From positions 878-64,877 of the forward strand of contig JBGATS010000004.1 in assembly GCA_044229075.1 (NCBI GenBank): DNA of 64,000 bases. The letters are read 5' to 3'. Origin of the DNA: Minisyncoccia bacterium. GTDB lineage: Bacteria > Patescibacteriota > Minisyncoccia > Phycocordibacterales > UBA1006. A program made the translations under genes and the position numbers. Below, in pieces: positions 31,356 through 47,144 of this stretch. Position 1 is the first letter of the stretch, and each line of letters starts with the position of its first letter. Below the pieces are notes generated by a model. It ran no database searches. It had not been told where the DNA came from and worked only from the letters and a program-made list of their open reading frames with translations.

Positions 31356-31904
31356 TTATAATTTCTTTACCTGTACAAAATCAAGTTCCACAGATGTTTC
31401 TCGTCCGAACATATTCACCATAACTTTTACCTTACCACGATCATGATCTACCTCGGAAACATGACCTTCCATATCCTTGAACGGTCCGTCGGTAATAAAT
31501 ACCACTTCGCCCTCGGTGACCAATATGGTGTGTTTTGCTTTTTCAGCACCCTCCATGCGTGAAAACAGGAAGTCGATCTCCTCTTGCGATACAGGAACCG
31601 GTGTTGTACCAGAACCAACAAATCCAGTCACCCGTGGCGTGTTACGCACAATATACCACGAGTCGTCATCTACAATCATATCTACCAATACATATCCGGG
31701 ATAAATGCGTTCTTCTACTTCTACTTTTTTACTTCCTTTGATTTTTACGACTTTTTCCGTAGGAACTACAACGTTAAAAATTTTATCGGTCACTCCCAAT
31801 GATTCTGCGCGTTGCTTTAAATTACGCATTACTGCGTTCTCGTACCCTGCATAGGTGTGAATCGCATACCAATTGCGACCCTGTTGCATTTCTTGTCGTG
31901 ACAT
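31356..31904 (-). CDS. nusG: Transcription termination/antitermination factor NusG
   Basis: NGN domain NWYAIHTYAGYENAV and a C-terminal KOW domain. Confidence 0.9.
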   Translation of the reverse strand: MSRQEMQQGRNWYAIHTYAGYENAVMRNLKQRAESLGVTDKIFNVVVPTEKVVKIKGSKKVEVEERIYPGYVLVDMIVDDDSWYIVRNTPRVTGFVGSGTTPVPVSQEEIDFLFSRMEGAEKAKHTILVTEGEVVFITDGPFKDMEGHVSEVDHDRGKVKVMVNMFGRETSVELDFVQVKKL

Positions 31905-31934: not shown

Positions 31935-32120
31935 CTATCGAGTAATGGCAGCTTGGAGTAACTTACTAAAGATTCCATCAAAGAGTCCGAGGTAAAAACC
32001 GGTCGCTAATGACAAAATAATCACAATGAGCGTGTGCCCAAAAGCCTCCATCGGAGAAAGCCAGGTAGTTTTTTTTGCTTCACTGATAACTCCTTTGAAA
32101 AAGGTTACAACTGAATTCAT
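31935..32120 (-). CDS. secE: Preprotein translocase subunit SecE
   Basis: 61 aa with a single TM. Conserved position upstream of nusG. Leaderless promoter TGATATACT is 6 nt before the ATG. Confidence 0.8.
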   Translation of the reverse strand: MNSVVTFFKGVISEAKKTTWLSPMEAFGHTLIVIILSLATGFYLGLFDGIFSKLLQAAITR

Positions 32121-32148
32121 AATGGATCAAGTATATCAGAAACCACAT

Positions 32149-32189
32149 AAAATACAAGGGGGACGCCTGCGGCGCCCCCCTTGTATTTT
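32149..32189. repeat. GC-rich palindromic element, copy 1 (AAAATACAA-GGGGGGaCGCC-TGC-GGCGCCCCCC-TTGTATTTT)
   Basis: Member of a 5-copy family. Located in a divergent intergenic region. Confidence 0.7.
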
Positions 32190-32282
32190 ATGTAATTGAC
32201 TTTTTATAAAAAAAGAGTATCGTGATATCAAAGTCTCAAAACGAGACCAAAAAAGATTTTTCACCTTAAAAAATATAATATA

Positions 32283-32831
32283 ATGAAAAAATTACTTTTA
32301 TTAGTATTTGTCATGATACTCTGGCAAACTAATTTCAGCCAAAATGGATGGAATCGTATTTCCTATGGAAATCAAAACCAAACATTTAATCAAACAGTAA
32401 CTATTACTGATAATGGTTACACAGGAACTGCAATTGTTCCCTTCCCGGTTGGCGCCAGTAATCTTTCCTGGCTGAAAAGAGGAAGTGCATACTATGCCAA
32501 ATGTTTTTGGAATGGTACCTGGTATGAAAGATTGATTCCCAATATTTATTGGTATCAACCACGCGCATACAATCAACAGTTTAATCAAAACTGGAATTGT
32601 CAGGTCAACGTACCTGCAGGATATAACTACCTTGGGTACGGTAACAATAATAATAACTATTACGCCGACTATTATTATGGCGGTAATTATTACCGACAAC
32701 CAATTGGTCTCAATGTTGCCTCAATCATCCTTAATATTGGAGCCTCAATTGTAAATAATTTACAAGGGAATCAACTTGGTTGGAATAACAATTGGAATAA
32801 CCAATATCCAAACGGAAATTGGAAATGGTAA
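32283..32831 (+). CDS. Secreted Asn/Tyr/Trp-rich low-complexity protein
   Basis: Signal peptide MKKLLLLVFVMILW. N/Y/W-rich repeats. Confidence 0.5.
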   Translation: MKKLLLLVFVMILWQTNFSQNGWNRISYGNQNQTFNQTVTITDNGYTGTAIVPFPVGASNLSWLKRGSAYYAKCFWNGTWYERLIPNIYWYQPRAYNQQFNQNWNCQVNVPAGYNYLGYGNNNNNYYADYYYGGNYYRQPIGLNVASIILNIGASIVNNLQGNQLGWNNNWNNQYPNGNWKW

Positions 32832-32892
32832 AAGAACAAGGAGCTACTCATCGAGTAGCTTTTTTTAATGCATCTGCTATGATATGCATCAT

Positions 32893-33282
32893 ATGAAAAA
32901 ACCATTAATACATGTAAAAAAATCAAAAACAGGCATGGGATTATTCGCAGGACAGAATATTAAAAAAGATACGAAAATTATCGAATACATTGGCGAGAAA
33001 ATATCCGACGCCGAGGCACAGCGTCGTGGTGGGCAATACTTGTTTGAAATTAATAATAAATGGACCATCGATGGATCACCGCGCTATAATAAAGCCCGGT
33101 ATATTAATCACCAATGTGGCCAAGGGAACTGTGATGCACTGAATGTGCGTGATCATATTTTCATCTATGCATTCCGTGATATTGCCGAGGGTGAGGAACT
33201 CACCTATAATTATGGCGATGAATTTTTCGAGGAACATATCAAACCAAAAGGCTGTAAATGTACAACCTGTAACCCATCCTAA
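32893..33282 (+). CDS. SET-domain protein (putative protein-lysine methyltransferase)
   Basis: GMGLFAGQNI, ARYINHQCGQGNC (NHSC-type), ELTYNYG, and a post-SET Cys cluster KGCKCTTC. Confidence 0.7.
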   Translation: MKKPLIHVKKSKTGMGLFAGQNIKKDTKIIEYIGEKISDAEAQRRGGQYLFEINNKWTIDGSPRYNKARYINHQCGQGNCDALNVRDHIFIYAFRDIAEGEELTYNYGDEFFEEHIKPKGCKCTTCNPS

Positions 33283-33345
33283 ATACAAAACCACCCATAC
33301 GGGTGGTTTTGTTGAGGAGTAATCACTCATTCACACAATGGTTGA

Positions 33346-35871
33346 TTATTCCTTTGGAGTTGGACGATACGGAGTATAGTCAACTTCTTCATGGGTTACC
33401 ACATTTTTTGGGGCAACCGGAATATCTTCACGATTGGTATAATAATGATGATGTTCCTCTCGGCGAGTCATGTAACGAATCACCAAGATGACCAAGATGA
33501 GTAAGAGGATCAGGAAGAGCCATCCTGCCAATGTTCCTGGAAGATTCCCCAGACCAAAGATTGATGCGCCCAACACTTGATTCTGTGACGCGACAAAAGT
33601 GTCAGAGTCATATGCAATTGCATTCTCTTGTGCTTGTCGGTTTTCAGGGTTTTCGAATGCGATAATTGCACGTGCAGTTACCGGATCATTTTCTTTCAAG
33701 TTTCCTACCACCTTTGTTCGGATGGTAATATCATCTTTTTCAGAAATACGTAGTTCATCGATGTTTACGTATACCGCATTCGCATCACGGTCAATCTGAC
33801 CACGGTCAGTACTGGTGATTTGGAGTGCTTTCGGGAAAGTGATTTCGAGTACGAGATCCTTGATATCAACATTAGAGATATTTTCCCATGCAACGTCGTA
33901 TACCAATTCTTCGTTTCGCGCTACGGTGTCACGACTGTTATCAATCGTTAATCGTACATAGCGAGCTCCGCCTACTGCACCGGTTACTACAGTATTTGCC
34001 ACAGGGGCAGTAACTTCGCGAACAACGGTTGTTCGTACAATTCCTGTAGATGTAGTACTTTTTACGGTAGTAGTTCCCTTGCGTGCAGTACTGAATGAAT
34101 AGGTAGTTCCTTTCACAGTACCATTACAATTTTCTACCACTGCTCGGTAATAATATGTTACACCAGGAGTAAGACCCGTAAGTGCTTGCGCCATTGATCC
34201 CGATGTTGATCGGGTAACTGACCCAGTCGCTTGTCCTAATGATGATGCAGACGTTCCATATTCAAAATACGTTCGTCCAGAACATCCGTTCATGTTGTAA
34301 AATCCATCAATCACCGCAGTCGTGTATCCAATAGATACTGGTGTGAGTGTTTGTGCTGTTGGGTCACTACTGATAGGTGGAGGTGTACCCTTTTCAATAA
34401 TAAATCGAACCCATTCACCACATACTACGTCACCATTGTTCGCACATGCGCGGTATTCATAGGTACCATTTGCAAAACCTGTTTGCACATAGCTAAATCC
34501 ATGTGATGCATTACTGTATGATCCTGCGCTTGGTGTTGCTCGTTCTGAACCATTGATTGGTCGCCAGATGAAATAGGTAGTACTCACATATCCATCATTG
34601 TTGTAAAAATTTCCCTGCAGTGTCGCAGAACCGTTCGTATTATTCACTGATGGTGAACCGGTTGCAACAGAGATATTATTTTGTGGTGGTTGTGGATTAT
34701 TAGTGATAGTAAATTGCCGAACAACTCCTTCATTATCACCATTGTCATCACTCGCACACGCAGCATAATTATATGTTCCTGTAGACAGCCCGTTTAATAC
34801 TTTTGAGAAATTAGCAGAAGAGCTGTTTCCAGAATATGACGCAGAAACAATACGAACTTCTTCCTCATTAACAGGGTTAATAATAAAACAGGTAGTAACA
34901 GAACCTTCTGCGTTAGAAAATGATCCATTTAATGTAACAGATCCTTGCCCATTTACAGAAGCTCCTCCAGTAACCACATCAGGACCATTCCCTTGTGAAG
35001 AATTTCCAATTGTGAATGATTCCCACCCACTGGCAGATGCGCTACCATACACGTTCGCACCACATGCCTGGTAGTAATACGTTCCTGCAGACAGTCCAGA
35101 GAGGTTTAATGAGAAATTCCCTGTTGTTCCTGATGGCAGGTTTGCATCTCTTTTTACAACATCTCCGTTTGGATATTTTACATCGAAACATGCTTTTGTT
35201 GCAGAATAATTAGAACTGTAGGTACCGTTAATAGTAGCACTACTGGTCCCTACGTTTGATACTTGTTGGTTCTGAATCGTTGGTGCAGATCCGGTTGGAG
35301 TATTCGCAACTACCTTGAATACTGCTTTAACTACTCCTTGATTTTCCCATCCTGGATTTACGGTTCCAATATTGATTCCTCCTGCGTTAAAAATCTGAGT
35401 AGGGTTTGATAACGCAGTCCAACTTCGGTTACTTTGTGTTTGTACATACGCACCTACAAACGTAATAGTTGAATTTTGTTGGAGGGTAATTGATCGCTCT
35501 CCACTGTCTACAGCAGATCCATTAATATATACTTGTCCTATGGTTGAAAAAGTACTTGCAGATTTGTTCCCACGAAAATCAGTTACTCGTGCAGAAACGT
35601 TTGGAGCAGGTGCATCTCCATTATTATGGAAATATACTGCGAGGTTAATAGTATCCCCATCGCCAACAGTAATATTGGTGCCCGGCCAACATGCAGTATT
35701 TGCATCTTGTGGATTGTCTGTCGCATTGACCACCATATAGGTTGGACAATCGTTCGAAGCGGAATTCATTGAATATCCTGCAAACGCGGTTTGTGTAGAA
35801 ACACTAAAACCTACCATTGCAATCAATGCAATCATTCCGATTTTTGTTATTTTTGATAAAATATTTTTCAT
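33346..35871 (-). CDS. Large surface protein: signal peptide, multiple Fn3-like repeats (TYYYRA-type), a DUF11-like domain, and a C-terminal LPGTL-hydrophobic-RRE sorting-like anchor
   Basis: Repeats end LTPGVTYYYRAVVEN, LSAGTYYYQACGAN. DUF11-like: ELVYDVAWENISNVDIKDLVLEITFPKALQITS. C-terminus: GNLPGTLAGWLFLILLLILVILVIRYMTRREE. Confidence 0.6.
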   Translation of the reverse strand: MKNILSKITKIGMIALIAMVGFSVSTQTAFAGYSMNSASNDCPTYMVVNATDNPQDANTACWPGTNITVGDGDTINLAVYFHNNGDAPAPNVSARVTDFRGNKSASTFSTIGQVYINGSAVDSGERSITLQQNSTITFVGAYVQTQSNRSWTALSNPTQIFNAGGINIGTVNPGWENQGVVKAVFKVVANTPTGSAPTIQNQQVSNVGTSSATINGTYSSNYSATKACFDVKYPNGDVVKRDANLPSGTTGNFSLNLSGLSAGTYYYQACGANVYGSASASGWESFTIGNSSQGNGPDVVTGGASVNGQGSVTLNGSFSNAEGSVTTCFIINPVNEEEVRIVSASYSGNSSSANFSKVLNGLSTGTYNYAACASDDNGDNEGVVRQFTITNNPQPPQNNISVATGSPSVNNTNGSATLQGNFYNNDGYVSTTYFIWRPINGSERATPSAGSYSNASHGFSYVQTGFANGTYEYRACANNGDVVCGEWVRFIIEKGTPPPISSDPTAQTLTPVSIGYTTAVIDGFYNMNGCSGRTYFEYGTSASSLGQATGSVTRSTSGSMAQALTGLTPGVTYYYRAVVENCNGTVKGTTYSFSTARKGTTTVKSTTSTGIVRTTVVREVTAPVANTVVTGAVGGARYVRLTIDNSRDTVARNEELVYDVAWENISNVDIKDLVLEITFPKALQITSTDRGQIDRDANAVYVNIDELRISEKDDITIRTKVVGNLKENDPVTARAIIAFENPENRQAQENAIAYDSDTFVASQNQVLGASIFGLGNLPGTLAGWLFLILLLILVILVIRYMTRREEHHHYYTNREDIPVAPKNVVTHEEVDYTPYRPTPKE

Positions 35872-36000
35872 AATTGTTTATTGTGTGAATTAAATGATAA
35901 ACAAGGGTAGTATAGCATATTTGATATTTATTGTCAAGGTTTCACCAGAAATCATTTATACTGTCAAGAACCCATCAGAAAACTTCATGCATACATAAAA

Positions 36001-36027
36001 TTCACAATACAAGAGGGGCACCTGCGG
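36001..36027. repeat. GC-rich palindromic element, copy 2 (AAGAGGGGCaCC-TGC-GGCGCCCCTCTT)
   Basis: Downstream of the 36109 gene's stop, so it can act as a terminator. Confidence 0.7.
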
Positions 36028-36108
36028 CGCCCCTCTTGATATGTATATTCCCAAAAAACTTCAACAAAAAAAAGCCCGGAACGTATCCAGACGGCTTTTA
36101 TTCAATTT

Positions 36109-36948
36109 TTATTGTATGATAGTGTTTCCTATCAATGGTCCACTACTACCTACAGGTTGTTGTGACGTGTTGGTTAGGGGAATAATAACCCCCCCGTTAA
36201 ACCTCGGGTCGTTATCAGAAATAGTACTCCCTGTAAGAGGTCTCCCTGTTGAAGTACTAGTACTAGTGCTAGTGCTAGTGCTAGCAGGAACTGTCATTGT
36301 TCCTCCAGTAAATGGAGTACCACTTGTTCCTTGTTGTGCGGTAGTGGTGTTAATAATAATATTATCTTGATAAAGTCCAGCTTTGACATTTCTGTCATTT
36401 TGGACATCAAAATAAGTTTTTTCAACTAAACCAAAGGTTTCAAGTCCGGTTTTAACAATACCTAAACCCAGATCTGCTTTTCGTTTCCTGTTAGCAATCT
36501 CGAGCTCCAATTCTTTTAATTCAGCTTGTTTTGCTTGCCAAGCAATATCATTATTAAGCTTCAATTTTTCTACTTCTAATGTCTGCATTTGTAATTGGAT
36601 TTTCATTTTTTCCAGCTCAGGATCATACGTTTGAACAGAATTATAATTTCTGTTATCTACGTTTGATGGTTGTTGGTTTTGTTGCTGCTGACTGTTGTTA
36701 TTGTTATTAATAACAGTGCATGTTTTACAAACAAAATAATATGTATTATCTGCATAATATACACCGTATATGTTCCCAGCTTGTAGTTGGTTGTTATACG
36801 CTGCCAATGTTGCATAAAGCTTGTCAGATATTGGAGCAACAACATCAGTTTGGTAAACAGCATTTGCTGGTAATTGCTGCGCATTACCATTAACTGCACA
36901 GAAAGCGATAATTAATACCGCAACGATTTTTTTAATTGTATTTCTCAT
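36109..36948 (-). CDS. Secreted coiled-coil protein with an (ST)n repeat
   Basis: Signal peptide MRNTIKKIVAVLIIAFCAVNGNA. Coiled-coil ELEKMKIQLQMQTLEVEKLKL. ASTSTSTSTSTST is encoded by a hexanucleotide SSR. Confidence 0.55.
   Translation of the reverse strand: MRNTIKKIVAVLIIAFCAVNGNAQQLPANAVYQTDVVAPISDKLYATLAAYNNQLQAGNIYGVYYADNTYYFVCKTCTVINNNNNSQQQQNQQPSNVDNRNYNSVQTYDPELEKMKIQLQMQTLEVEKLKLNNDIAWQAKQAELKELELEIANRKRKADLGLGIVKTGLETFGLVEKTYFDVQNDRNVKAGLYQDNIIINTTTAQQGTSGTPFTGGTMTVPASTSTSTSTSTSTGRPLTGSTISDNDPRFNGGVIIPLTNTSQQPVGSSGPLIGNTIIQ
36253..36285. repeat. Hexanucleotide microsatellite (AGTACT)2(AGTGCT)3 inside a CDS
   Basis: Encodes the TSTSTS tract. Length changes would remain in frame. 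Confidence 0.8.
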
Positions 36949-37150
36949 TTTTTTTTAAATTTATTTGTTAAGTAATTCTAAAACCTTGATAGAACTATCC
37001 AGATCTTGGAATTACTTAATCAAATAAATTGTTATGAAGAAATACACTTTTTTTGTGAAAGAACTCTTTAACATAGGGTTTCCTATGTTCTTACGGGTAG
37101 TATAGCATATTGGGGTTTTTTTGTCAAGTAATTTTGAGATTAAATTTAGA
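36949..37150 (-). promoter_or_regulatory. Promoter plus structured 5' leader, module A: CTTGACA-N17-TGCTATACT, an 8-bp hairpin, and an 11-bp long-range stem TTAAGTAATTC/GAATTACTTAA near the start codon
   Basis: About 85% identical over roughly 190 bp to module B at 38210-38400. Confidence 0.6.
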
Positions 37151-37225
37151 TATGACAAAAAACAAAAAAATAACCCTATTCTGTGTGAATAGGGTGCCCG
37201 ATAACGTGGGTCGACGTTTTAAATT

Positions 37226-38209
37226 TTAAAAATCATAATCTGAGCTTTTTGGACCAGAGTTATTAATATTGCTTTGTTGTAATAATACAGCGCTCGTTGG
37301 ATTATTACTCAACACAACAGCATTTTTTACTTCTTGACCTTGGTTTCCATTGATAACAACTGCTTTATCAGAAACCCTACCATTGGTATTACATGGTATA
37401 ACCACTGCTTTTTTAGGACAATCAAACACTACTGCTTTTGGTGTAGTTTGAGCTGGCTTTTCCTCCGATGTTGGTAATTTTTTCAAATGACCTGCGATCC
37501 AACTGGTACTCGGTGTATTAAAGCAATACGCCGAACCAGAGAACATCGGCTCATAACCGAAATCAGACAAGTCAATCCACCAACCACCTTCGGCTTCACC
37601 AGATCCACCAAGGGTGTGCGCCTTTCTTGGTAAAGGGAAAATTTTATTGTTGGTGATATCTACACCATCAAAATAAATTTCCTCTCCTGTTGGAGTATTT
37701 GTGTAATATACACGACTACTTTCAAAAACTTTGACAACATCTTCTATTGTAGAAAACATTTCCAAATTGTAGGTTGCAGCCAATTTTCCACCAACTGCGC
37801 TGTTGAGCGCGTTGTAAAATGCAATCAACGATTCATTATGTCGTTGTTGCATTATTGGCAAGTACTTCATGTACTCACTGTACGATAACCCGTCATACAA
37901 ACGGCCATCGTTTTTTTGGAGTGGTGTACCATACAACATAAAAGCAATATAATCACTTTTATTTTTGTAATTAACCGCCTTGCTTGGTTCCTGGCAGATG
38001 CCATTTCCCCAAACCCTGAAGCGGCTGTAAACTAATTCTCCACTTGGTTTTTTCCAAATGTCGAAATAACCATTTTTTTCTTTGATATACATTGACGTAT
38101 CAAACGACAACGTTCCATGTCCTGTTGGTGTTGGACCTTGCTGTGCCTTTGTAGCAACAACAATACACATCACAATGGCGAGTGCTAAAAATTTAATTGT
38201 ATTCTTCAT
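37226..38209 (-). CDS. Secreted hypothetical protein with C-terminal KAVV repeats, paralogous signal peptide to the 36109 gene
   Basis: MKNTIKFLALAIVMCIVVATKAQQ. Four KAVV repeats. Confidence 0.55.
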   Translation of the reverse strand: MKNTIKFLALAIVMCIVVATKAQQGPTPTGHGTLSFDTSMYIKEKNGYFDIWKKPSGELVYSRFRVWGNGICQEPSKAVNYKNKSDYIAFMLYGTPLQKNDGRLYDGLSYSEYMKYLPIMQQRHNESLIAFYNALNSAVGGKLAATYNLEMFSTIEDVVKVFESSRVYYTNTPTGEEIYFDGVDITNNKIFPLPRKAHTLGGSGEAEGGWWIDLSDFGYEPMFSGSAYCFNTPSTSWIAGHLKKLPTSEEKPAQTTPKAVVFDCPKKAVVIPCNTNGRVSDKAVVINGNQGQEVKNAVVLSNNPTSAVLLQQSNINNSGPKSSDYDF

Positions 38210-38400
38210 TTTTTTTGATTTTATTTAATTAAGTAATTCAAAAACCTTGATAATCTGTATCCAGATCTTGGAATTACTTAATCAAATGTAAATTCAGAAT
38301 GAAAAATACAATTGTTGTGAAAGAACTATAACCATAGGATTTCTATGTTCTTATGGGTAGTATAGCATATTGGTATATATTTGTCAAGTTATCAACAGAT
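38210..38400 (-). promoter_or_regulatory. Promoter plus structured 5' leader, module B (duplicate of module A)
   Basis: CTTGACA-N17-TGCTATACT. Same hairpins as module A. Confidence 0.6.
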
Positions 38401-38458
38401 AACTAAATTAAATAGAGACTACCAGCAAATGCTTGATAGTCTCGTATTTATTTAGTTT

Positions 38459-39031
38459 TTAACGGCCTGGAACCGTATTTGGTGTTGATTTGTTTTCTTC
38501 GCCTCCAACACCAGATTTTTTCGAATACATCAATTTTTGCCCTGACCCAACTATTTGCCATAATTGTCCGTCACCTAGTTTTATATACCCAGGACGTGCC
38601 GGATCTTGTTTTAAAACAAATTCCGTAGTTGGGCTAATACCTGTTGCAGTGAATGGAACCTTTACAACATCGCCATTTTTCATAGTGAACTCCATTTGGT
38701 AAATAATCCATCCATTGCCAATTTTCTCTTGCGAGAATCGGCACAGCTCCATATTTTTGATTCTATGTTCTTTATACAGCACAGAATCAACAATGTCGCC
38801 GCGTTCATTGACAAACGAGGTGTCTTTTACGTTTTTGAACGTAACTTCACCTTGGATTGCGAATTGAACTTCCAAATCTGATTTTTTTTGAATTTCACGT
38901 TTTTCTAGCGTGAAAATTCCCCATGTGTCGTTTTTTGTTTCAACGATTGGCGTTGAATTGTAAACGATTGTTTTTTTACTGCAGCTCGACATTACTAATG
39001 CGATTACTGCTAAAATAATTAATTTTTTCAT
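38459..39031 (-). CDS. Lipoprotein (lipobox MSSC), hypothetical
   Basis: MKKLIILAVIALVMSSCSKK. Upstream TTGACA-N17-TATAAT. Confidence 0.55.
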   Translation of the reverse strand: MKKLIILAVIALVMSSCSKKTIVYNSTPIVETKNDTWGIFTLEKREIQKKSDLEVQFAIQGEVTFKNVKDTSFVNERGDIVDSVLYKEHRIKNMELCRFSQEKIGNGWIIYQMEFTMKNGDVVKVPFTATGISPTTEFVLKQDPARPGYIKLGDGQLWQIVGSGQKLMYSKKSGVGGEENKSTPNTVPGR

Positions 39032-39125
39032 TTATTCTTTTTTTTTTGATTATTCAATTTTCTACTATTATATACCATAACGTATATTTTGTCAAGTTTT
39101 TTGTTGTGGAGGGGGAATACTGGGG

Positions 39126-39188
39126 GAAATACAGAAAAAAAAAGGGGGGGCGCCTGCGGCGCCCCCCCTTTTTTTTTCTCTGTATTTC
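39126..39188. repeat. GC-rich palindromic element, copy 3 (GAAATACAG-A9-G7CGCC-TGC-GGCGC7-T9-CTGTATTTC)
   Basis: Perfect 11-bp GC stem with A9/T9 flanks. Downstream of the 39242 gene's stop. Confidence 0.75.
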
Positions 39189-39241
39189 TTAAATTTACTC
39201 TAGCAAAAAATCTATACTACCAACAGTTAAAAGACTCCTTG

Positions 39242-39526
39242 TTATACTTCAATCTGCCCTGCAATCGCACGTACCTCATCCTGAATCCATATATCCAAAT
39301 CGGGAAACAATTCAGAAAGCGAAACTTGGTTAGTTGCGGTAGTAGTATGTATTCGGTGATACAGTGGCTCTATCTGATCCTGTGAAACTGTTTGTACTGC
39401 GCGTAGTGCAACAGATTGTATTACCATATCACTAATCTGGTGAACCATATCCTGTCGTTCAGTATCAGAAACCATATCCAGTCCACATGACAACGTTATT
39501 AATTTTTGAAAAACTTCATTGGTCAT
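39242..39526 (-). CDS. Hypothetical protein
   Basis: 94 aa. Forms an operon with the upstream 498-aa gene. Confidence 0.4.
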   Translation of the reverse strand: MTNEVFQKLITLSCGLDMVSDTERQDMVHQISDMVIQSVALRAVQTVSQDQIEPLYHRIHTTTATNQVSLSELFPDLDIWIQDEVRAIAGQIEV

Positions 39527-39533
39527 AGTAATT

Positions 39534-41030
39534 TTAATGCGTGATAAGTTCCTGATAAAGTCGATCCGTGATTACTCGATACAGATCTTGTCGTGAAACG
39601 TTTGCTGGCTGTTCTGGTGCTTCCTCGGAAACAGTTGGTGTAATTGTTTCATCGACTGTATTACTGATTACCGTCGATTGATCGGTGTGATCATTACCAG
39701 GAAGTGTGCGAGCAATATCTAGTGCAGGAGTTTGTATGTCACCAGGAACCGCAAGTCCGAGTGACTCTAAAACTGATTGAGCCTGTGTATCAACAGGTTG
39801 TGCAATAGTGGTTAACAACGCATTCACCGAAGACTGTTGTGCCAATGTCTGATCTGCAGGTTTTTGTTCCGATTGATCAAGTTCGAGTAATTTCTGTGAA
39901 TCAATCCACGCGCTGAACAATCGTTCTACCTGCTGTTGTAATCCATACTCCCGAGGAACCCGATCCAGGCTAATGAGTTTGTGAGTATAGTTACGAATCA
40001 GCATCCATACATCCTCGGCAGGTTGATCGAGGAACGTGTCTGTGCGTGTAACGAGGTCGTGCAATTCTACGAATGATCGTGTTTGTTTGATTGATTCTTC
40101 CAGGGTAATTTCTGGTGATGGTCCTCGTACTATTTCCTGGGTAAATGACCACGAAACTGCCTCTGGTACAACAGGTTCTGTTGGTGCAGATACTTCTTTG
40201 ATATCTGTTGTAGTATGTGTCGACACATCATGAATCATGTCTAGTTGGACAGAGGGTTGATCCTCTGTAGGAGAAATCGTTATTGTTGGTGAAACATTTT
40301 TTTCTGGTGGAACGTTTTCAGATGATAGCTGTATCGTCCCAAGTGTTCCTACAGGAGTTGCTCCTGTATTGTTGACTCGTGAAACAATCTCGACTGGTCG
40401 TGTATCAGATGTTGGTATAGTTTGTGAAACACTCGTGACCGATTGCTCTGGAAAATCTACTGGGTTTGGTAGAGGTTCCTGTGAAACTACTGTTGGTGAG
40501 TCTGGTTGGATAATTGGTTCTGAAAATTCTGATACGACTTCTCGGTATAACCGATCACCAGTATCAAGCGACACATCTGGAATTGGTTCGTTCAGAGAAA
40601 ATGTTTGGTAAGTCTTTTGGTCTCCTATCTGTTTCACGAGACTAAAAAAGTATGCCCCCGGCGTATGAATGATTCGATTGCCGGCATCAAAAGTAATTCC
40701 TTTTGAGGCGAGAATCTGGAGTACGCGCGGAGGAAGTTCATCAATAGAACTAGTCGAACGAAACGCCAAGGTATCTGGAACTGCTTTATCTTTTCCAAAT
40801 GTTACCGCAAGTGTTTTGTCGAGAATTTCATTGAGTGGTTTTTTATCAGAAGAAGCTTGGGTGCTGTTGCGTTCCTCGATTTTTCGTTCTACTGATTTTG
40901 TAACACCAAGAGATCCCAGGGACTGATTAACAACTGGTTGAACTGGTGCAGTCGTGGTCACCGTAGTAGTCGTTACCATACCATTGTTCACTGACTGAGT
41001 TGCAGTTTGTTTTTTTGATGAAGGCATCAT
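39534..41030 (-). CDS. Hypothetical low-complexity (T/S/P/Q-rich) protein. GC content is higher than the surrounding sequence.
   Basis: 498-aa ORF, compositionally biased, no recognised domain. Confidence 0.45.
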   Translation of the reverse strand: MMPSSKKQTATQSVNNGMVTTTTVTTTAPVQPVVNQSLGSLGVTKSVERKIEERNSTQASSDKKPLNEILDKTLAVTFGKDKAVPDTLAFRSTSSIDELPPRVLQILASKGITFDAGNRIIHTPGAYFFSLVKQIGDQKTYQTFSLNEPIPDVSLDTGDRLYREVVSEFSEPIIQPDSPTVVSQEPLPNPVDFPEQSVTSVSQTIPTSDTRPVEIVSRVNNTGATPVGTLGTIQLSSENVPPEKNVSPTITISPTEDQPSVQLDMIHDVSTHTTTDIKEVSAPTEPVVPEAVSWSFTQEIVRGPSPEITLEESIKQTRSFVELHDLVTRTDTFLDQPAEDVWMLIRNYTHKLISLDRVPREYGLQQQVERLFSAWIDSQKLLELDQSEQKPADQTLAQQSSVNALLTTIAQPVDTQAQSVLESLGLAVPGDIQTPALDIARTLPGNDHTDQSTVISNTVDETITPTVSEEAPEQPANVSRQDLYRVITDRLYQELITH

Positions 41031-41145
41031 AGTATTATTAGTATATCATATATTAAACAATACTGTGAATAGGTGTAGTGCTCTGAAAATTTCAAGATAA
41101 CTATTTTTTAAAAAATCTGATACTGTTTTATGCTATACTTTCACT

Positions 41146-42069
41146 ATGAATATTCAGCAAGCAAAACAGCGCTTCTTGGAATATGTTGAAATAGAAAAAG
41201 GGCGAGCGCTCAATACTGTACGAAACTACGAACACTATCTGGATGTGTTTATTCGTCACACCGCTATTCATGATACCAGTGATATCACGGACGAGATTGT
41301 CCGAGAATTTCGTCTGTGGCTCAATCGTCAACCAGTACACACAAAAATTCGTGGAGAACAAAAAACAATGTCAAAAAAAACTCAGAATTATTATTTGATC
41401 GCCCTTCGTGCATTCCTAAAATATTTAGCACGACAAGAGATAAAAAGTCTTCCTGCAGATCGTATTGAACTTGCAAAAGTTCCTATGCGAGAACTCGACT
41501 TGATTACCGCTGCCGAACTCAATCGACTGATGGACGCACCCACAGGTAGTGATGAACGTGCGCTCCGTGATCGTGCGATCTTGGAATTACTCTTTTCGAC
41601 AGGATTGCGTGTATCAGAATTATGCAACCTTACCACCGACATTGATTTTACTACTGATGAATTTTCTGTTCGTGGTAAAGGTGGAAAAATTCGCGTTGTC
41701 TTTATCTCTGATTCTGCACGTACCGCAGTACAACAATATATCCAAAAGAGAAAAGATATGTCCGACGCATTGTTCGTTGCTGTGTCGGATGAAACACGAG
41801 GAAGAAAACCAGCTGACCGTGATGCCAGTCTGACCCGCAGGGCAATCCTGCGCATTGTAAAACACTATGCAATCAAGGCTGGGATTTCAAAAAAGGTGAC
41901 CCCTCACGTGATCAGACACTGCTTTGCAACGGGGTTATTATCCAATGGTGCCGATATCCGCAGTGTGCAAGTGATGTTAGGTCATGCGAACATTGCAACC
42001 ACCCAGGTTTATACTCATGTCACCGATAAACAACTTCGTGAAGTTCACAAAAAATTTCATGGGCGATAA
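41146..42069 (+). CDS. xerC: Tyrosine recombinase XerC/XerD family
   Basis: Catalytic R...HxxR...Y: LRVSEL, HVIRHCFATGLL, QVYTHV. Leaderless promoter TGCTATACT is 6 nt before the ATG. Confidence 0.85.
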   Translation: MNIQQAKQRFLEYVEIEKGRALNTVRNYEHYLDVFIRHTAIHDTSDITDEIVREFRLWLNRQPVHTKIRGEQKTMSKKTQNYYLIALRAFLKYLARQEIKSLPADRIELAKVPMRELDLITAAELNRLMDAPTGSDERALRDRAILELLFSTGLRVSELCNLTTDIDFTTDEFSVRGKGGKIRVVFISDSARTAVQQYIQKRKDMSDALFVAVSDETRGRKPADRDASLTRRAILRIVKHYAIKAGISKKVTPHVIRHCFATGLLSNGADIRSVQVMLGHANIATTQVYTHVTDKQLREVHKKFHGR

Positions 42070-42113
42070 ATACTTCGTGACAAAAAAACCGTACCATCCT
42101 ATACTATAAATAT

Positions 42114-42788
42114 ATGAACGAGTCTTCACACAACCTCCAACACGAATATTTTGATCTTGCCTATCGCACTGGGTCTGATATTTGGACTCATATTCCTTAT
42201 CATAATCTGGCGCTCACCATGCTTCCACCTATTCCGGCGGACAGTATTGTGTTGGATGTTGGATCGGGGCGTGGATTATGGGCGTTCAAATTAATCGACC
42301 ACGGGTTCCGGGTGATTGGCCTTGATTATGTGCAATCCATTGTTGATCGAGTAAACGCAGATATCAAGCTCAACAAATATGCAGAACGTGCGCGGTTTGT
42401 TAAAGGTTCTGCAACAGACCTTCCTTTTACTGATACCAGTTTTCCATTGGTCAGCATGATTGGGTTATTACAACACCTCCCGGAATCTGATTGGGACCAA
42501 CATCTTTCCGAACTTGCACGTGTAGTACAACCTGGTGGGTATGTGCTATCCATTACCCTCTCTGATGAAACGCCACGATTTCTCGGACTTCGACCAAAAT
42601 TCAAAAACGAGTCTCCCTATAATAAATTTGGTGTGTCCTATTATTTTTTTAACAAGGATCAATTACTCGAACTCTTTGCTCGACATGGATTTCAATTGCT
42701 ATCCTATGAACACCAATTGTTCGACACGCGCAGCGATCCCGCTGATTCGTTGGGACTTCATTTTTGTGTGTTTCAGAAAATGAAATAG
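42114..42788 (+). CDS. Class I SAM-dependent methyltransferase
   Basis: LDVGSGRGLWAFKLIDHGFRVIGLD. Confidence 0.7.
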   Translation: MNESSHNLQHEYFDLAYRTGSDIWTHIPYHNLALTMLPPIPADSIVLDVGSGRGLWAFKLIDHGFRVIGLDYVQSIVDRVNADIKLNKYAERARFVKGSATDLPFTDTSFPLVSMIGLLQHLPESDWDQHLSELARVVQPGGYVLSITLSDETPRFLGLRPKFKNESPYNKFGVSYYFFNKDQLLELFARHGFQLLSYEHQLFDTRSDPADSLGLHFCVFQKMK

Positions 42789-42795
42789 TGTAAAT

Positions 42796-42830
42796 ACAAA
42801 GGGTGGGCGCCTGCGGCGCCCACCCTTTGT
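42796..42830. repeat. GC-rich palindromic element, copy 4 (perfect 16-bp arms ACAAAGGGTGGGCGCC-TGC-GGCGCCCACCCTTTGT)
   Basis: Terminator position after the 42114 gene. Confidence 0.75.
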
Positions 42831-42892
42831 TTATAGTATTCGTTCCAAAAAAAACTCTTTACGAATCACGATAAACATTTATACTACATTGT

Positions 42893-43690
42893 ATGAAACT
42901 CGTCTCTTGGAATGTAAATGGAATCCGCGCCGTACATAAAAAAGATTTATTTATACCAATGGTTCAGGTGTTGCAACCAGATGTGATTTGTTTACAAGAA
43001 ACAAAAGCAGAACAACATCAATCACCCATCGATTTATCTGATTATCATGAATATTGGAATTCATCACAAGGTCGCAAGGGTTACAGTGGTACCGCAATTT
43101 TCACCAAGGAAAAACCATTAAATGTATTTCTCGATTTTCCAGAAACAATAACAAAAAAATATACATTAGCAGATCGATATGGCGACCCAAATATAGAAGG
43201 TCGAGTCATTGCAATAGAATTAAAAAAATGTTTTATCGTGAATGTATACACCCCAAATTCTAAAGGCGACCTAAGCCGGCTTCCCTTGCGCGAGAAAAAT
43301 TGGGATCCTGCATTTTTGGAATATTGTAAGGAACTCGAAAAATCAAAACCAGTACTGTTCTGTGGTGATTTGAATGTTGCTCATACCTTTGATGATCTTG
43401 CCAATCCAAAACAAAACATTGGCACACACGGTTTTACTGAACAGGAACGCGCAAGTATTGATACTATAATTACGGCTGGATTTATTGATACATTCCGCAT
43501 GTTCACCACAGGAAACGGTCATTACAGCTGGTGGAGTAATTTTGGTAATGCACGATCGCGCAATGTTGGTTGGCGTATTGATTATTGGTTTGTATCGAAA
43601 AAATTGAAGCCAAAAGTGGTTGCAAGTACGATCCACCCAGAATTCCTGGGGTCAGATCATTGTCCAGTAGTACTTGACATTTCATTATAA
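42893..43690 (+). CDS. xthA: Exodeoxyribonuclease III / AP endonuclease
   Basis: MKLVSWNVNGIRAV...VICLQETK... Confidence 0.85.
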   Translation: MKLVSWNVNGIRAVHKKDLFIPMVQVLQPDVICLQETKAEQHQSPIDLSDYHEYWNSSQGRKGYSGTAIFTKEKPLNVFLDFPETITKKYTLADRYGDPNIEGRVIAIELKKCFIVNVYTPNSKGDLSRLPLREKNWDPAFLEYCKELEKSKPVLFCGDLNVAHTFDDLANPKQNIGTHGFTEQERASIDTIITAGFIDTFRMFTTGNGHYSWWSNFGNARSRNVGWRIDYWFVSKKLKPKVVASTIHPEFLGSDHCPVVLDISL

Positions 43691-43702
43691 TAAGAATAAA
43701 AT

Positions 43703-44062
43703 GTGAAAGAATCAAAATTTTATAACATGAACACAGAAATTAATCTAAGCGGAGAAAAATTTGATATTTTTTCATCTACAGACAGAAAAAGCTTGTTACA
43801 AAGACTACAAGTTTTAGTAAAAAACTTTACATCTCCAGAAATAGAGATGCAATCTCATCTGGGGAAAAATTTTATTAAAAAAATAAAATTAAGAACCAAA
43901 GAGTTGGTTTCTTATGTGGTAGAAAGTCTTAAATTTTTAGTTGCTGAAATGAGTAATCAAATTCCAAAAAAAATTCTAAAGGAGTTGAATATTTTTTTAT
44001 TTAAAATTGAAAAACTTCAAGATTGTCTTTTGGAAAATAAAAAAATTGAACAAAAAATTTAA
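43703..44062 (+). CDS. Hypothetical protein
   Basis: 119 aa. A terminator AGCGTGCC-TATTAT-GGCACGCT follows. Confidence 0.4.
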   Translation: MKESKFYNMNTEINLSGEKFDIFSSTDRKSLLQRLQVLVKNFTSPEIEMQSHLGKNFIKKIKLRTKELVSYVVESLKFLVAEMSNQIPKKILKELNIFLFKIEKLQDCLLENKKIEQKI

Positions 44063-44134
44063 ATAAGATTAGCGTGCCTATTATGGCACGCTTTTTTATT
44101 AGATCAAGTCACCCATGCATGCTATACTGCCTTC

Positions 44135-45733
44135 ATGAAAAATCAGAAATATATTTTTATTACTGGTGGTGTGGTATCAGGATTGGGAAAAGGTATCATG
44201 GGGGCGAGTCTGGGCTTGATTCTCAAGTCCAGCGGATTTTCTGTCGAAGCCTTGAAAATGGATCCCTACCTCAACATTGATCCAGGGACGATGTCTCCCT
44301 ATGAACACGGCGAAGTGTATGTGTTGGACGATGGATCAGAAACAGATCTAGATCTGGGGCATTATGAACGATTTTTGGGAACCCATTTATCAGCACAGAG
44401 CACCCTCTCTGCAGGAAAAATTTATCACACTATTCTATCCCGTGAACGTGCGGGGGAATATTTAGGACACACGGTCCAATTGATTCCTCATATCACTGAT
44501 TTTATTAAAACTACGTACGCAACAACGAACAGTGATATTAAAATTATTGAGATTGGTGGTTCGACTGGTGATATGGAGGCAGAAGTATTTCTGGAAAGTC
44601 TCCGTCAGTTTAAACGCGATCACCCGGAACAAGTTCTCCATGTACATCTGGGATATATTCCCTACTTAGGCGTTTCTGGAGAATACAAGTCAAAACCCAT
44701 CCAAAACTCACTCCGTGAATTACTCCGCCTAGGAATTGCGCCAGACATCATCGCTGCACGATATGAACCAAACGATCACGAGGAGCTTCCAACATCACTG
44801 CTCGAAAAAATTGCACTCTTTGGAAACATTTCCCGCGATCGGGTAATTCCTTGTCCTGATCTGGAAAATATTTATCAAGTTCCTATTCATCTCTTGGAAA
44901 ATACTTCGATCATAACACCACTTACTGATTTTTGTGGACAGGAGCTCCACCCAACACTACCTCGATTCTTTTATGATTACCAAACCCTAAAAGATAAAAC
45001 ACTTCGCATCGCACTCGTTTCAAAATATACAAAACTTTCTGATGCGTACCTCAGTGTTATTGAATCAATCAAGATAGCTGCAACTGCGCACAACGTTGCA
45101 GCTACTACTACCATCGTTGATGCAGATGATCCTGATTTGTTACAGAAACTAGAACCGTTCGATGCAATTATTATCCCTGGAGGTTTTGGGTCACGTGGTA
45201 TGGAAGGAAAAATAAAAGCAATCACCTACGCTCGTACAACTGGAAAACCATTCCTTGGAATTTGCTTGGGATTACAATTAGCGGTCGTTGAGTTTGCTCG
45301 CGCATTTAGCCATCCGAACGCGGTGAGTCGCGAGATGGAAAACACGACAGAGTCTGATGCGTTCATTATTGATTTTATTCCAGAACAACTCAAGATCGAA
45401 CAAAAAGGCGGCACCATGCGACTGGGTACCTATCCTTGTACCCTGAAACCAGGAACATTGGTCCACGAATTATTCGGAACAGAACAAACCATAGAACGAC
45501 ACCGCCATCGGTTAGAGGTACAAAATGGGTATGAAGAAATTCTTGAAAAAAACAGAATGATTATTTCTGGAAAGTTTATCAAGCCAGATACTGATGATTA
45601 CCTAGTAGAAATGATTGAGCTTGATCGTTCGATCCATCCATACTTTGTCGCAACACAATCACATCCAGAATTCTTGTCACAGCCTGATCATCCGCATCCA
45701 CTCTTTCATGGATTGATCAAAGCGTGTTTGTAA
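44135..45733 (+). CDS. pyrG: CTP synthase
   Basis: Begins KYIFITGGVVSGLGKG. Contains a GATase domain with GICLGLQ. Confidence 0.95.
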   Translation: MKNQKYIFITGGVVSGLGKGIMGASLGLILKSSGFSVEALKMDPYLNIDPGTMSPYEHGEVYVLDDGSETDLDLGHYERFLGTHLSAQSTLSAGKIYHTILSRERAGEYLGHTVQLIPHITDFIKTTYATTNSDIKIIEIGGSTGDMEAEVFLESLRQFKRDHPEQVLHVHLGYIPYLGVSGEYKSKPIQNSLRELLRLGIAPDIIAARYEPNDHEELPTSLLEKIALFGNISRDRVIPCPDLENIYQVPIHLLENTSIITPLTDFCGQELHPTLPRFFYDYQTLKDKTLRIALVSKYTKLSDAYLSVIESIKIAATAHNVAATTTIVDADDPDLLQKLEPFDAIIIPGGFGSRGMEGKIKAITYARTTGKPFLGICLGLQLAVVEFARAFSHPNAVSREMENTTESDAFIIDFIPEQLKIEQKGGTMRLGTYPCTLKPGTLVHELFGTEQTIERHRHRLEVQNGYEEILEKNRMIISGKFIKPDTDDYLVEMIELDRSIHPYFVATQSHPEFLSQPDHPHPLFHGLIKACL

Positions 45734-45743
45734 TAACCAAGCA

Positions 45744-45810
45744 ATACAAAACTCTATAAAAAAAAGGGGGGCGCCTGCGGCGCCCCCCTTTTTTTTATAG
45801 AGTTTTGTAT
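45744..45810. repeat. GC-rich palindromic element, copy 5 (67-bp perfect palindrome ATACAAAACTCTATA8G6CGCC-TGC-GGCGC6T8ATAGAGTTTTGTAT)
   Basis: 32-bp perfect arms. Terminator position after pyrG. Confidence 0.8.
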
Positions 45811-45857
45811 TCGAAACATTATACCCAAAAAAATTCCTATGCTATACTACATATGTT

Positions 45858-47144
45858 ATGAAAACAAAAAAACTTTTTCTTTCTATTATTACCAGTTTCG
45901 TCCTATTAGGCGTATTTACACCAACCGTTGATGCGTTCTGTCGCCCGTTTTGGAACCCATCACAGCAATTCGACATGGAAGGCGCAATGAATGTATTTGT
46001 CCATCACGCAGACAATATTGAATCAGTAATCGTCCAACCAGCATACAAGGGAACGGTAAAAGATTTTGCATTGGTATTTGCAACGCCCAACCGTCCAAAG
46101 GTAACCGACGCACCAAAGGGTATTTTTGAACATTTGAATAACCTTACCAATCCATGGGTACCTGTACCCATGATGCTTAATGCAGATATTGCCAGCACAA
46201 GCATTGCAGAAAAATCGGTAACCGTTCACGAAATCGCAACCGCAGGTGATTACACGGCAACTATTCTGTCTGCAACATCTGCAACCGCACTTGCCGACTA
46301 TCTCCGCACTAATGGATACACGGTCAGCGCAAAAGACACCGAGGTATTCAATTATTATGTATCAAAAGGAACTTGGTATTTTGTCGCACTAAAAGCCGAT
46401 TTGACCAAGGTAACCCAAAACCCTGATGGAAAAATTGACGGACTCCTCAGCCCTATTCAGATTACTTTTGCTTCCGATCGTGCAATACTCCCTATGAAAC
46501 TCCTTGCGGGTGACATGGGGACCGTAAAACTCTTGGTATACACCCTCTCGAAAAATGGTCTCTTCATCCCTGGGGTTGATGTGCAGTATGCTAAAAAATT
46601 AACCAACAGTAGCCCACGCGTTACGACTGAATTCGATTGGGCAGCGTGGACAAAAATGAATGAAGTCATCTACGAACCGCTCGCGGGAATCCTTGCCAGA
46701 TTCAATCCTGCACAAAACTGGCTCGTTCGTATGGGTGTTGATGTAGACACAAAATCGGTCACGAGCGACTTGGTATTCACCGATATGATTCCAGGCCCTG
46801 TCAGCCAACAGAACGGAACTCCGAAACGATTCCTCCCTGAACAATTACCGAAACTTGCCGGGGTACTACCAGGAACAGGTGAAGTTTCCACCGGAGACCG
46901 TTATCAAGCATTCTTTACCAGTTCTCAAAAACTTACCTACGGGTCTCGGGGACAGCAGGTAGCGTTGTTACAGGAACTCCTTAATCAAATTATGAAACCA
47001 GCTTCCCCGCTCGTTCCTGATGGAACATGGGGACGAAAAACTGCAGCTCTCGTGCGTACTTTCCAAACCCAATTCGGTATCAAAATTGACGGTATTGTTG
47101 GAAGTCAGACGCGAACATTTATGCAGAGTTTGATGCAGAAATAG
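45858..47144 (+). CDS. Secreted protein with a C-terminal peptidoglycan-binding (PG_binding_1-like) domain
   Basis: Signal peptide. C-terminus: GQQVALLQELLNQ...DGTWGRKTAALVRTFQTQFGIKIDGIVGSQT. Confidence 0.55.
   Translation: MKTKKLFLSIITSFVLLGVFTPTVDAFCRPFWNPSQQFDMEGAMNVFVHHADNIESVIVQPAYKGTVKDFALVFATPNRPKVTDAPKGIFEHLNNLTNPWVPVPMMLNADIASTSIAEKSVTVHEIATAGDYTATILSATSATALADYLRTNGYTVSAKDTEVFNYYVSKGTWYFVALKADLTKVTQNPDGKIDGLLSPIQITFASDRAILPMKLLAGDMGTVKLLVYTLSKNGLFIPGVDVQYAKKLTNSSPRVTTEFDWAAWTKMNEVIYEPLAGILARFNPAQNWLVRMGVDVDTKSVTSDLVFTDMIPGPVSQQNGTPKRFLPEQLPKLAGVLPGTGEVSTGDRYQAFFTSSQKLTYGSRGQQVALLQELLNQIMKPASPLVPDGTWGRKTAALVRTFQTQFGIKIDGIVGSQTRTFMQSLMQK

Follow-up and report, generated by a model that had tools for sequence, protein, structure and literature searches.

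Shared-core, GC-rich palindromes between the genes of a Patescibacteria genome: a probable family of bidirectional terminators

What are strongly GC-rich, nearly perfect palindromes doing between the genes of an AT-rich bacterial genome, and why do five of them share one core? The question is raised by a 64,000-nt stretch of contig JBGATS010000004.1 (Minisyncoccia bacterium, assembly GCA_044229075.1), hereafter the window, whose 32-46 kb segment carries five such elements, numbered here copies 1 to 5. A preliminary description, made from the sequence alone, had likened them to mobile repeats or protein-binding sites. On balance, we favor the view that they constitute a family of strong, symmetric, bidirectional Rho-independent terminators or insulators of common descent, a reading that we hold to be probable and well short of certain.

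The family pattern GSCKCCTGCGGCGCC, run with up to 2 mismatches allowed on the window and on 100 shuffles of it, has exactly 5 matches in the 64 kb, namely copies 1-5, where 0.01 are expected; none of the shuffles (0/100) reached 5. The GC-rich palindromes with a shared core that had first drawn attention are thus a genuine family. Their common core is GG(G/A)C(G/A)CC-TGC-GGCGCC, which reads GGCGCC-TGC-GGCGCC in copies 3-5 and has the left half GACGCC in copy 1 and GGCACC in copy 2. All five copies are intergenic, with none in coding sequence and none in the other 50 kb of the window; they lie 3-3.8 kb apart within 13.6 kb of the 64 kb, a clustering for which a post-hoc permutation gives p ~0.01. 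Two details of the preliminary description required correction: copy 2 is centered at 36024 rather than 36014, and copy 5 has a perfect palindrome of 69 nt, at 45743-45811, rather than 67 nt. No similarity of flanks beyond the palindromes, which would be a sign of segmental duplication, was found between copies.

The outer arms AATACAA/TTGTATT, originally regarded as a conserved trait of the family, require a different interpretation. The exact pair is present in copies 1 and 5 only; copy 3 has AATACAG...CTGTATT, and copies 2 and 4 have just the left half in the window strain. As AATACAA also stands directly 5' of unrelated hairpins at 2264, 19483, and 33282, and AATACAA/TTGTATT flank a further unrelated hairpin in the related contig L106, these arms are not family-specific; they are the generic, local A-tract/T-tract form of terminators in this genome. 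A role for them as -35 boxes of every copy was rejected, the spacing being right in copy 1 only. Two readings of the core were likewise set aside. The hexamer GGCGCC is not depleted outside the elements (3 observed, 2.5 expected in the window), which led us to reject restriction-site avoidance or a restriction-modification target. The loop is TGC on the + strand in 5/5 copies, whatever the strand of the genes (p ~0.06); orientation as a marker of the direction of replication or transcription was rejected because the loop of copy 4 is flipped in L106, making orientation labile and uninformative.

In build, the five elements resemble the terminators around them. A palindrome census of the window lists ~30 other intergenic palindromes of identical layout (A-tract, stem, short loop, stem, T-tract), for example AAAAACCACCAAATT/AATTTGGTGGTTTTT and AAAGAAAAACTACCC-AATC-GGGTAGTTTTTCTTT, and the five elements follow this layout with a far stronger stem. 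Their fold energies range from -23 to -55 kcal/mol over both strands, with z from -5.4 to -12.6 and 0/200 shuffles as stable. Copy 1 folds at -35.8 kcal/mol on the + strand and -43.9 on the - strand and copy 2 at -23.1 and -31.0, respectively; the values for copies 3, 4, and 5 are -48.6, -36.3, and -54.9 kcal/mol, the last with the z of -12.6. The T-tract 3' of the stem is T9 in copy 3 and T8 in copy 5 on both strands, and the tails of copies 1, 2, and 4 are interrupted (TTGTATTTTAT, TTGATATGTATATT, and TTTGTTTAT). A consensus terminator scan listed copies 1, 3, and 5, and at the top. In ~200 kb of DNA from the clade, all hairpins whose loop is bordered by 6 or more G/C-only pairs carry the GGCGCC stem; the other terminators of the window have individual stems of their own, except for the pair 28085/28829 and a loose CCACC group in the census. 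Rfam at gathering score gave no family match for the elements and only three tRNAs in the window. Its sub-threshold matches, all far below, were families that end in terminators (sraA and the L20, Thr, and ylbH leaders), small RNAs, and generic or microRNA hairpins.

Position points the same way for four of the five copies. Copies 2-5 lie 3-63 nt 3' of a stop codon, as their early assignment to terminator positions had it, and 10-62 nt 5' of the next predicted promoter. For copy 2, the distances are 60 nt from the stop of the gene at 36109-36948 (-), which precedes it, and 62 nt to the TTGACA-17-TATACT promoter of the gene for an 841-aa protein, which follows; for copy 3, they are 63 nt from the stop of the preceding gene at 39242-39526 (-) and 38 nt to a TTGACA-17-TATAAT promoter downstream. 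Copy 4 begins 3 nt after a methyltransferase stop codon and copy 5 begins 10 nt after that of pyrG, both with their own promoters further downstream. A weak hairpin between copy 2 and the preceding gene (Table 1) is a terminator that either predates copy 2 or forms a tandem with it. The elements are therefore like bidirectional intrinsic and promoter-coupled terminators in having an A-tract, a G/C-rich stem, a short loop, and a T-tract, symmetric for both strands, and copies 2-5 are like intrinsic terminators in lying between a stop codon and the next promoter. They are unlike ordinary terminators in that five sites have one identical 15-23 nt core, in stems of up to 33 bp that are the sole G/C-only stems in the ~200 kb, and in that some members stand between divergent genes.

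The same loci in strains and relatives, gathered via PyrG, NusG, and the 841-aa protein and derived from JGI 3300056825 and 3300056831 and from SRR30545106, SRR26424594, and SRR23004069, reveal how the elements are inherited and how they change. L106 has 93-95% nucleotide identity over window positions 39239-47837 and contains copies 4 and 5; L210 (95-97.5%) covers copies 1 and 2, and L212 (96.6%) covers copy 1. More distantly, L110, with PyrG 78% identical, has copy 4 still in place 5' of xth, carrying the T:A variant seen in the window and L106, in surrounding intergenic DNA that is unalignable and between divergent genes. Copies 1, 2, 4, and 5 are, as these comparisons indicate, vertically inherited at fixed sites. 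Insertion polymorphism, which the preliminary description had suggested looking for, did not appear in the form of clean filled and empty pairs: copy 4 is absent in L154 (86% PyrG identity to its sister L110), L107, and L156, and copy 1 in L148-L153, and all of these absences coincide with unalignable or rearranged DNA, so that no clean empty site was seen. Relatives have 0-2 copies per 8-21 kb, some at loci other than those of the window, and several close relatives have 0 copies in 9-30 kb.

Between close strains, the changes are those expected of quasipalindromes, with an inverted loop in copy 4 and complementarity-restoring changes in copies 2 and 5. In L106, the loop of copy 4 is GCA within perfect 19-nt arms, where the window has TGC. 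Copy 5 of L106 differs from that of the window by symmetric double substitutions at two places (CTCTAT/ATAGAG to CTCCAT/ATGGAG, and A/G with T/C at the boundary) and one extra C, in flanks that are ~98% identical. The L210 ortholog of copy 2 is a perfect palindrome with 19-nt arms, separated from the window version by a clustered TAT/ACA difference in one arm, a paired A/G in the other, and T/C in the core. Copy 1 is perfect in L212, with 23-nt arms, and further mutated in L210; the window and L210 have independent C-to-T changes, and all variation in a 160-nt stretch of this region lies within the element. Covariation was assessed over 24 family members against 500 shuffles, part of the core being fixed by the search patterns. 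Beyond the searched core, 86.5% of cells are paired compared with 73.6% in shuffles; both-sided changes occur at 12 pairs, and the covariation score is 0.343 compared with 0.111, with 0/500 shuffles as high in either measure. Mismatches compatible with G.U pairing were 4/4 on the secE-sense strand, all of them C-to-T on the same G-rich strand. We rejected them as proof of selection at the RNA level because mutational bias explains them equally.

As first described, the region of copy 1 is one of divergent promoters, with secE (31935-32120, -) on one side and the gene at 32283 (+) on the other; the element is 25 nt upstream of the secE ATG. The conclusion then drawn, that the family is not purely one of terminators, is weakened by the history of the site. 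Five relatives have the SET-domain protein gene, secE, and nusG codirectional, with a 35-47 nt spacer and no element, and the homology of the window to these relatives stops 4 nt from copy 1, at 32141. An inversion of the SET segment is common to the window, L210, and L212, together with a gene for a 182-aa protein, which is without counterpart in the five codirectional relatives. The other end of the inverted segment is marked by a hairpin outside the family, at 33285-33312, where the SET and 841-aa genes converge; this hairpin is conserved in both L210 and L212. The inverted segment spans 32200-33345, and its junctions at 32141-32145 and 33285-33312 are both at hairpins with a common AAATACAA. 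The divergent placement of copy 1 is thus, by comparison with relatives, a derived state that arose via inversion, and it is therefore weak evidence against a terminator role.

At its new position, copy 1 appears to have become part of a promoter. The predicted secE promoter consists of a -35-like TTGTAT (+ strand 32152-32157, in the palindrome arm), a 16-nt spacer, and the -10 box TATACT (32130-32135), which is 9 nt from the ATG at 32120; in relatives, the same -10 box is paired with TAGACT overlapping the SET stop codon. An arm of copy 1 would accordingly supply the -35 hexamer of the secE-nusG promoter, in the manner of promoter-coupled terminators, whose hairpin DNA likewise gives a -35-like hexamer at such a distance. 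The arrangement TTGTAT-16-TATACT-9-ATG matches the promoter-coupled terminator layout of Fletcher et al. (bioRxiv 10.64898/2026.08.19.745784).

At copy 3, an older terminator seems to have been turned over. The remnant of the original terminator of the 94-aa gene (Table 1) has lost one arm and the loop when the downstream sequences of the window and L106 are compared; L106 keeps it intact as AAAGAGCTCC-TCC-GGAGCTCTTT, and L110 and L107 have a simple terminator right after the orthologous gene. A half-deleted terminator fits replacement of the old signal by the strong element. Judged against L106, copy 3 sits at a rearrangement junction. An IS30-like element and a large synteny break lie in L106 ~45 nt from the would-be copy 3 site (window ~39225). 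There, L106 1311-4510 (JGI 3300056825 contig), which contains the IS30-like gene (HTH_38 and rve domains, 3500-4459) and a UvrD gene split into five open reading frame (ORF) fragments, replaces ~18 kb of window sequence (21.4-39.2 kb).

If the elements are terminators, each would part two adjacent transcription units. A transcript of either strand would fold into a G/C stem of 10-11 bp, with a total of up to 33 bp paired, ahead of a T-rich tail, a combination that would release RNA polymerase, and the hairpin remaining at the 3' end should protect the upstream mRNA too. The shared 15-23 nt core would derive from common descent, a single hairpin module having reached several neighboring terminator sites, most likely through short-patch templated copying between hairpins with similar A/T flanks. 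A G/C-only stem may be "frozen" because a swap from G:C to C:G has no wobble intermediate. At the DNA level, intrastrand (hairpin-templated) strand switching would keep the palindromes symmetric and flip the loop, homopolymer slippage would introduce further change, and copy 1 would have reached its divergent region through inversion. Template-switch mutagenesis of quasipalindromes (the Ripley model) is well-known, as are small hairpin inversions in chloroplast DNA. The loop inversion of copy 4, the clustered perfecting change of copy 2, and the symmetric double changes of copy 5 are all like quasipalindrome template switching. The quasipalindrome model says how the elements would mutate and not what purpose they serve, and the mechanism is here read from sequence comparison.

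Table 1. Coordinates of the palindromes, associated signals, and genes in the window
Feature	Position	Strand	Description
Copy 1, palindrome	32145-32193		Arms 23 nt, 96% complementary (inverted-repeat search)
Copy 1, sequence			ACATAAAATACAAGGGGGACGCC-TGC-GGCGCCCCCCTTGTATTTTATGT; single A/C mismatch on + strand equals G.U pair in - strand RNA
Predicted secE promoter, partly within copy 1	32130-32157	-	Read from the sequence
Copy 2, palindrome	35999-36049		Arms 24 nt at 75%; outer arms imperfect in window strain
Copy 2, well-paired part	36010-36038		CAAGAGGGGCACC-TGC-GGCGCCCCTCTTG
Weak T8-tailed hairpin	36074-36092	-	Directly after stop of 279-aa gene; 7 pairs, tail TTTTTTTTGT; conserved in L210
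Copy 3, palindrome	39133-39179		Arms 22 nt, 100%; AGAAAAAAAAAGGGGGGGCGCC-TGC-GGCGCCCCCCCTTTTTTTTTCT
Copy 3, outer AATACAG/CTGTATT	~39125-39189		Extended pairing
Remnant of original terminator of 94-aa gene	39222-39241	-	One arm and loop deleted relative to L106
Copy 4, palindrome	42791-42835		Arms 21 nt at 90%
Copy 4, perfect part	42795-42831		Perfect 17-nt arms
Copy 4, sequence			TAAATACAAAGGGTGGGCGCC-TGC-GGCGCCCACCCTTTGTTTATA
Copy 5, palindrome	45743-45811		69-nt perfect palindrome, arms 33 nt, 100%
Copy 5, nesting			A8-G6CGCC-TGC-GGCGC6-T8 unit within outer terminator-like palindrome AATACAAAACTCTAT/ATAGAGTTTTGTATT
Non-family bidirectional terminator	33285-33312		ACAAAACCACCC-ATAC-GGGTGGTTTTGT, AAAT before it
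rplK			Before copy 1
nusG	31356-31904	-	Before copy 1
secE	31935-32120	-	Followed by copy 1
Genes between copies 1 and 2			182-aa secreted-looking protein (+), SET-domain protein (+), 841-aa protein (-)
Genes between copies 2 and 3		-	279-, 327-, and 190-aa proteins, function unassigned
Genes between copies 3 and 4			94-aa (-), 498-aa (-), XerC/D-like recombinase (+), methyltransferase (+)
Genes between copies 4 and 5		+	xth, 119-aa protein, pyrG
Gene after copy 5		+	DUF2330/peptidoglycan (PG)-binding protein

The core is not confined to this locus. Scans with strict family patterns, over one genome per species and over JGI metagenomes, matched 45 and 37 stretches, respectively, mostly perfect hairpins, and many of the matches came from high-GC genomes, in which such a stem is unremarkable. 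Eight of the 45 genome matches came from six metagenome-assembled genomes (MAGs) of the candidate phyla radiation (CPR), belonging to Paceibacteria, Parcubacteria, and Saccharibacteria, two of them with two copies each. The matches were single and sporadic, and no genome with many copies was found with these patterns in either collection. Three sub-types (G-run, GAGGGG, and GGTGGG) recur across Paceibacteria, Saccharibacteria, and unclassified AT-rich MAGs at non-orthologous sites. In viral contigs, used as a control, the stem GGGGCGCC-NNN-GGCGCCCC occurs with at least 27 loop classes, of which TGC/GCA is one of the commoner. The many loops found on the same stem led us to reject a generic-hairpin explanation of the TGC loop and to take the fixed TGC/GCA loop as a mark of ancestry, not of hairpin stability. 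Upstream of a DUF4143 ATPase gene, L095 (Paceibacterota) and L211 have a family member where the window has a different palindrome; this is a 38-nt perfect palindrome (AAAAACCACCCAGGAATTCCTGGGTGGTTTTT) at 17799-17838, between divergent MarR-like and DUF4143 ATPase genes.

Several of these observations weigh against a family of terminators. Copy 1 of the window, copy 4 of L110, and the L211 element lie between divergent genes, with no obvious need for a terminator; the T-tract is fully paired with the A-tract in copies 3 and 5; copy 5 keeps an extra 15 bp of outer stem, beyond what termination requires; and the four G.U-compatible mismatches, all C-to-T on one strand, are equally well-explained by strand-biased mutation. 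Furthermore, distant MAGs have identical versions of 27-31 nt (AAGAGGGGCGCC-TGC-GGCGCCCCTCTT was found in three MAGs, of which one is Saccharibacteria, one "Bacteroidota", and one unclassified), which horizontal spread fits better than purely local copying. The elements might instead be non-autonomous mobile palindromes akin to repetitive extragenic palindromic (REP) sequences or miniature inverted-repeat transposable elements (MITEs), mobilized by a transposase encoded elsewhere and acting in trans or spread by natural transformation, which would land preferentially in or next to existing terminator hairpins and terminate transcription as a side effect. We think this rather unlikely. It would account for several clustered copies at unrelated sites (p ~0.01), for the recurrence of the core and its three sub-types at non-orthologous sites in other CPR and AT-rich MAGs (the 8/45 matches in six CPR MAGs), for the exchange of palindromes at the DUF4143 ATPase site, for the absence of copy 4 from L154, L107, and L156 despite its presence in L110 and of copy 1 from L148-L153, and for the resemblance of copy 5 to an A8-G6...C6-T8 unit set in the center of an older AT-rich terminator. 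Against it stand the stability of the copies at orthologous sites in different strains and in a relative whose PyrG is 78% identical, the match of their absences to rearranged or unalignable DNA with no clean empty site, and the lack of a many-copy genome in the strict scans. No transposase, whether Y1_Tnp, DDE, or other, was detected in the 64 kb by a Pfam scan that took in essentially all window ORFs of at least 110 aa and several shorter ORFs, and the five copies are without target-site duplications, terminal repeats around internal sequence, a GT[AG]G head, or the doublets of REPINs (hairpin-forming REP pairs). A likeness to REP sequences and bacterial interspersed mosaic elements (BIMEs), as first proposed, extends to ~35-70 nt GC-rich extragenic palindromes that are multicopy at the 3' ends of genes in γ-proteobacteria, with a possible role as terminators or 3' mRNA stabilizers and an association with rearrangements and insertion sequence (IS) insertions. 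It breaks down in that the elements are single, perfect or nearly perfect hairpins, only five in 64 kb, whose alignment has no GT[AG]G head and no inverted doublets, with no Y1 transposase of the REP-associated (RAYT) type in the window. The suggested likeness to MITEs suffers similarly, the whole element being one hairpin with a 3-nt loop and no copy having flanking direct repeats. A more specific proposal, which we regard as still less probable, is that the elements are undescribed minimal (~25-40 nt) mobile palindromes of Patescibacteria that copy into the centers of existing terminator hairpins and spread both locally and between lineages. It is suggested by the nesting in copy 5 and the replacement of the core at the DUF4143 ATPase site; spread would perhaps need no dedicated transposase, proceeding by natural transformation or hairpin-primed template switching, and the elements would act as seeds for inversions and IS insertions.

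Natural transformation also enters a very improbable alternative, that the core is a DNA uptake signal kept as inverted, terminator-forming pairs. CPR bacteria are naturally competent and transformable, and the DNA uptake sequences (DUS) and uptake signal sequences (USS) of Neisseria and Pasteurellaceae are said, in work of Kingsford et al. from 2007, to form terminator stems. The elements are like DUS/USS pairs in that one repeated short sequence is reused as the stem of many terminators and the same core occurs in several CPR lineages. They are unlike them in that DUS/USS occur at ~1 per kb, also inside genes, and the core here is rare, local, and strictly intergenic, at a density that is too low and too confined for uptake (5 in 64 kb, with nothing in the other 50 kb or in coding sequence); its half-site GGCGCC is not enriched outside the elements, and several close relatives have 0 copies in 9-30 kb. 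Improbable, too, in our estimation is a sequence-specific protein site GGCGCC-N3-GGCGCC, which might serve a dimeric regulator as its operator, bind a nucleoid or insulator protein, or be where the nearby XerC/D-like enzyme recombines DNA. The core sequence is invariant in the five copies and in orthologs down to 78% PyrG identity as the flanks diverge, every copy has a promoter shortly downstream, and copy 1 is flanked by two divergent -35 boxes; moreover, terminator palindromes can double as transcription factor sites (bioRxiv 10.64898/2026.08.19.745784). The protein-binding reading of the preliminary description is nevertheless not indicated by geometry, the distance from element center to predicted downstream transcript start varying from ~47 to ~122 nt. 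The flanking genes (secE/nusG, surface proteins, xth, and the DUF2330 gene) are functionally unrelated, and pairing is kept by compensatory change well past any plausible operator. The tyrosine recombinase stands at the same place in L107 and L154, which lack the elements, and so looks like a housekeeping gene. Nor do the perfect hairpins have the extrahelical bases or R/L box layout of attC and dif, and the flanking housekeeping genes, with promoters of their own, are not promoterless cassettes as at attC.

To our knowledge, a shared-core terminator family has not been described before in Patescibacteria, and a literature search gave nothing specific. Repeated palindromic terminators and quasipalindrome dynamics are both already known. 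Hardly any regulatory elements have been mapped in Patescibacteria, for which genetic tools have only begun to emerge. If the elements are indeed a terminator family, they would offer a concrete, recognizable strong terminator module for this group. They also provide a natural example of palindrome evolution between near-identical strains, including loop flips, templated arm correction, homopolymer slippage, and terminator turnover. No new mechanism or genetic system would be gained, and no open question settled, unless the elements are mobile. Their occurrence at synteny breaks and at the ends of relatives' contigs suggests that such palindromes probably fragment short-read CPR assemblies. 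Family palindromes lie at the start or end of relatives' contigs, or no more than ~120 nt away from it, at L212 position 1 (window 35995), L211 11255-11273, L093 122-148, and L101 7280-7306.

Judging from homologs of its PyrG and NusG, the best named of which are from Paceibacteria ("Pacebacteria"), Parcubacteria, and "Patescibacteria group", the window lies in Patescibacteria; by this evidence, it belongs to a small, AT-rich, Paceibacteria-like CPR genome. The 32-46 kb segment, which the preliminary description had matched to a surface-protein island and its flanks and to which it saw the elements confined, also carries conserved housekeeping genes (xerC/D-like, xth, and pyrG), and in relatives family members occur at other loci. 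A TTGACA-17-TATACT promoter module with conserved flanks, at 35905-35949, 37095-37139, and 38355-38399, precedes three consecutive - strand genes, those for the 841-, 279-, and 327-aa proteins. Over their 5' regions, the 279- and 327-aa genes are ~80% identical (36931-37132 compared with 38192-38392), and they therefore probably encode paralogous surface or secreted proteins. TATACT -10 boxes lie 7-9 nt before the ATG of secE (32130-32135, -), xth (~42881-42886, +), and the DUF2330 gene (~45845-45850, +), a proximity that suggests leaderless or near-leaderless mRNAs in this organism.

Other repeats came to light in passing. Terminators at 28085-28118 and 28829-28862, which flank a thymidylate-kinase-like gene, have a common outer stem, AAAAAAGCCAGT...ACTGGCTTTTGT, and different inner stems; the pair is a second small "terminator family" among neighbors. 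The palindrome TGTTTCA(T/C)(A/G)TGAAACA, which could be an operator-like motif, occurs three times (50794-50813, 50916-50935, and 53183-53202), twice inside the ORF of the CCA-adding enzyme. Beyond the window, TCTCGAGGGCCCCCTGCGGCGCCCCCCGTTTGAACGTCGCGCTTG is a repeated high-GC element on many contigs of one or two samples (L113, L119, L125, L129, L131, and L135, from metagenomes Ga0209302 and Ga0115006), an unrelated dispersed repeat that matched the pattern by chance. In IMG/VR, GGGCGCC-TGC-GGCGCCC occurs within runs of varied small G/C hairpins on AT-rich contigs of giant-virus MAGs (L012, L015, L019, L033, and L035).

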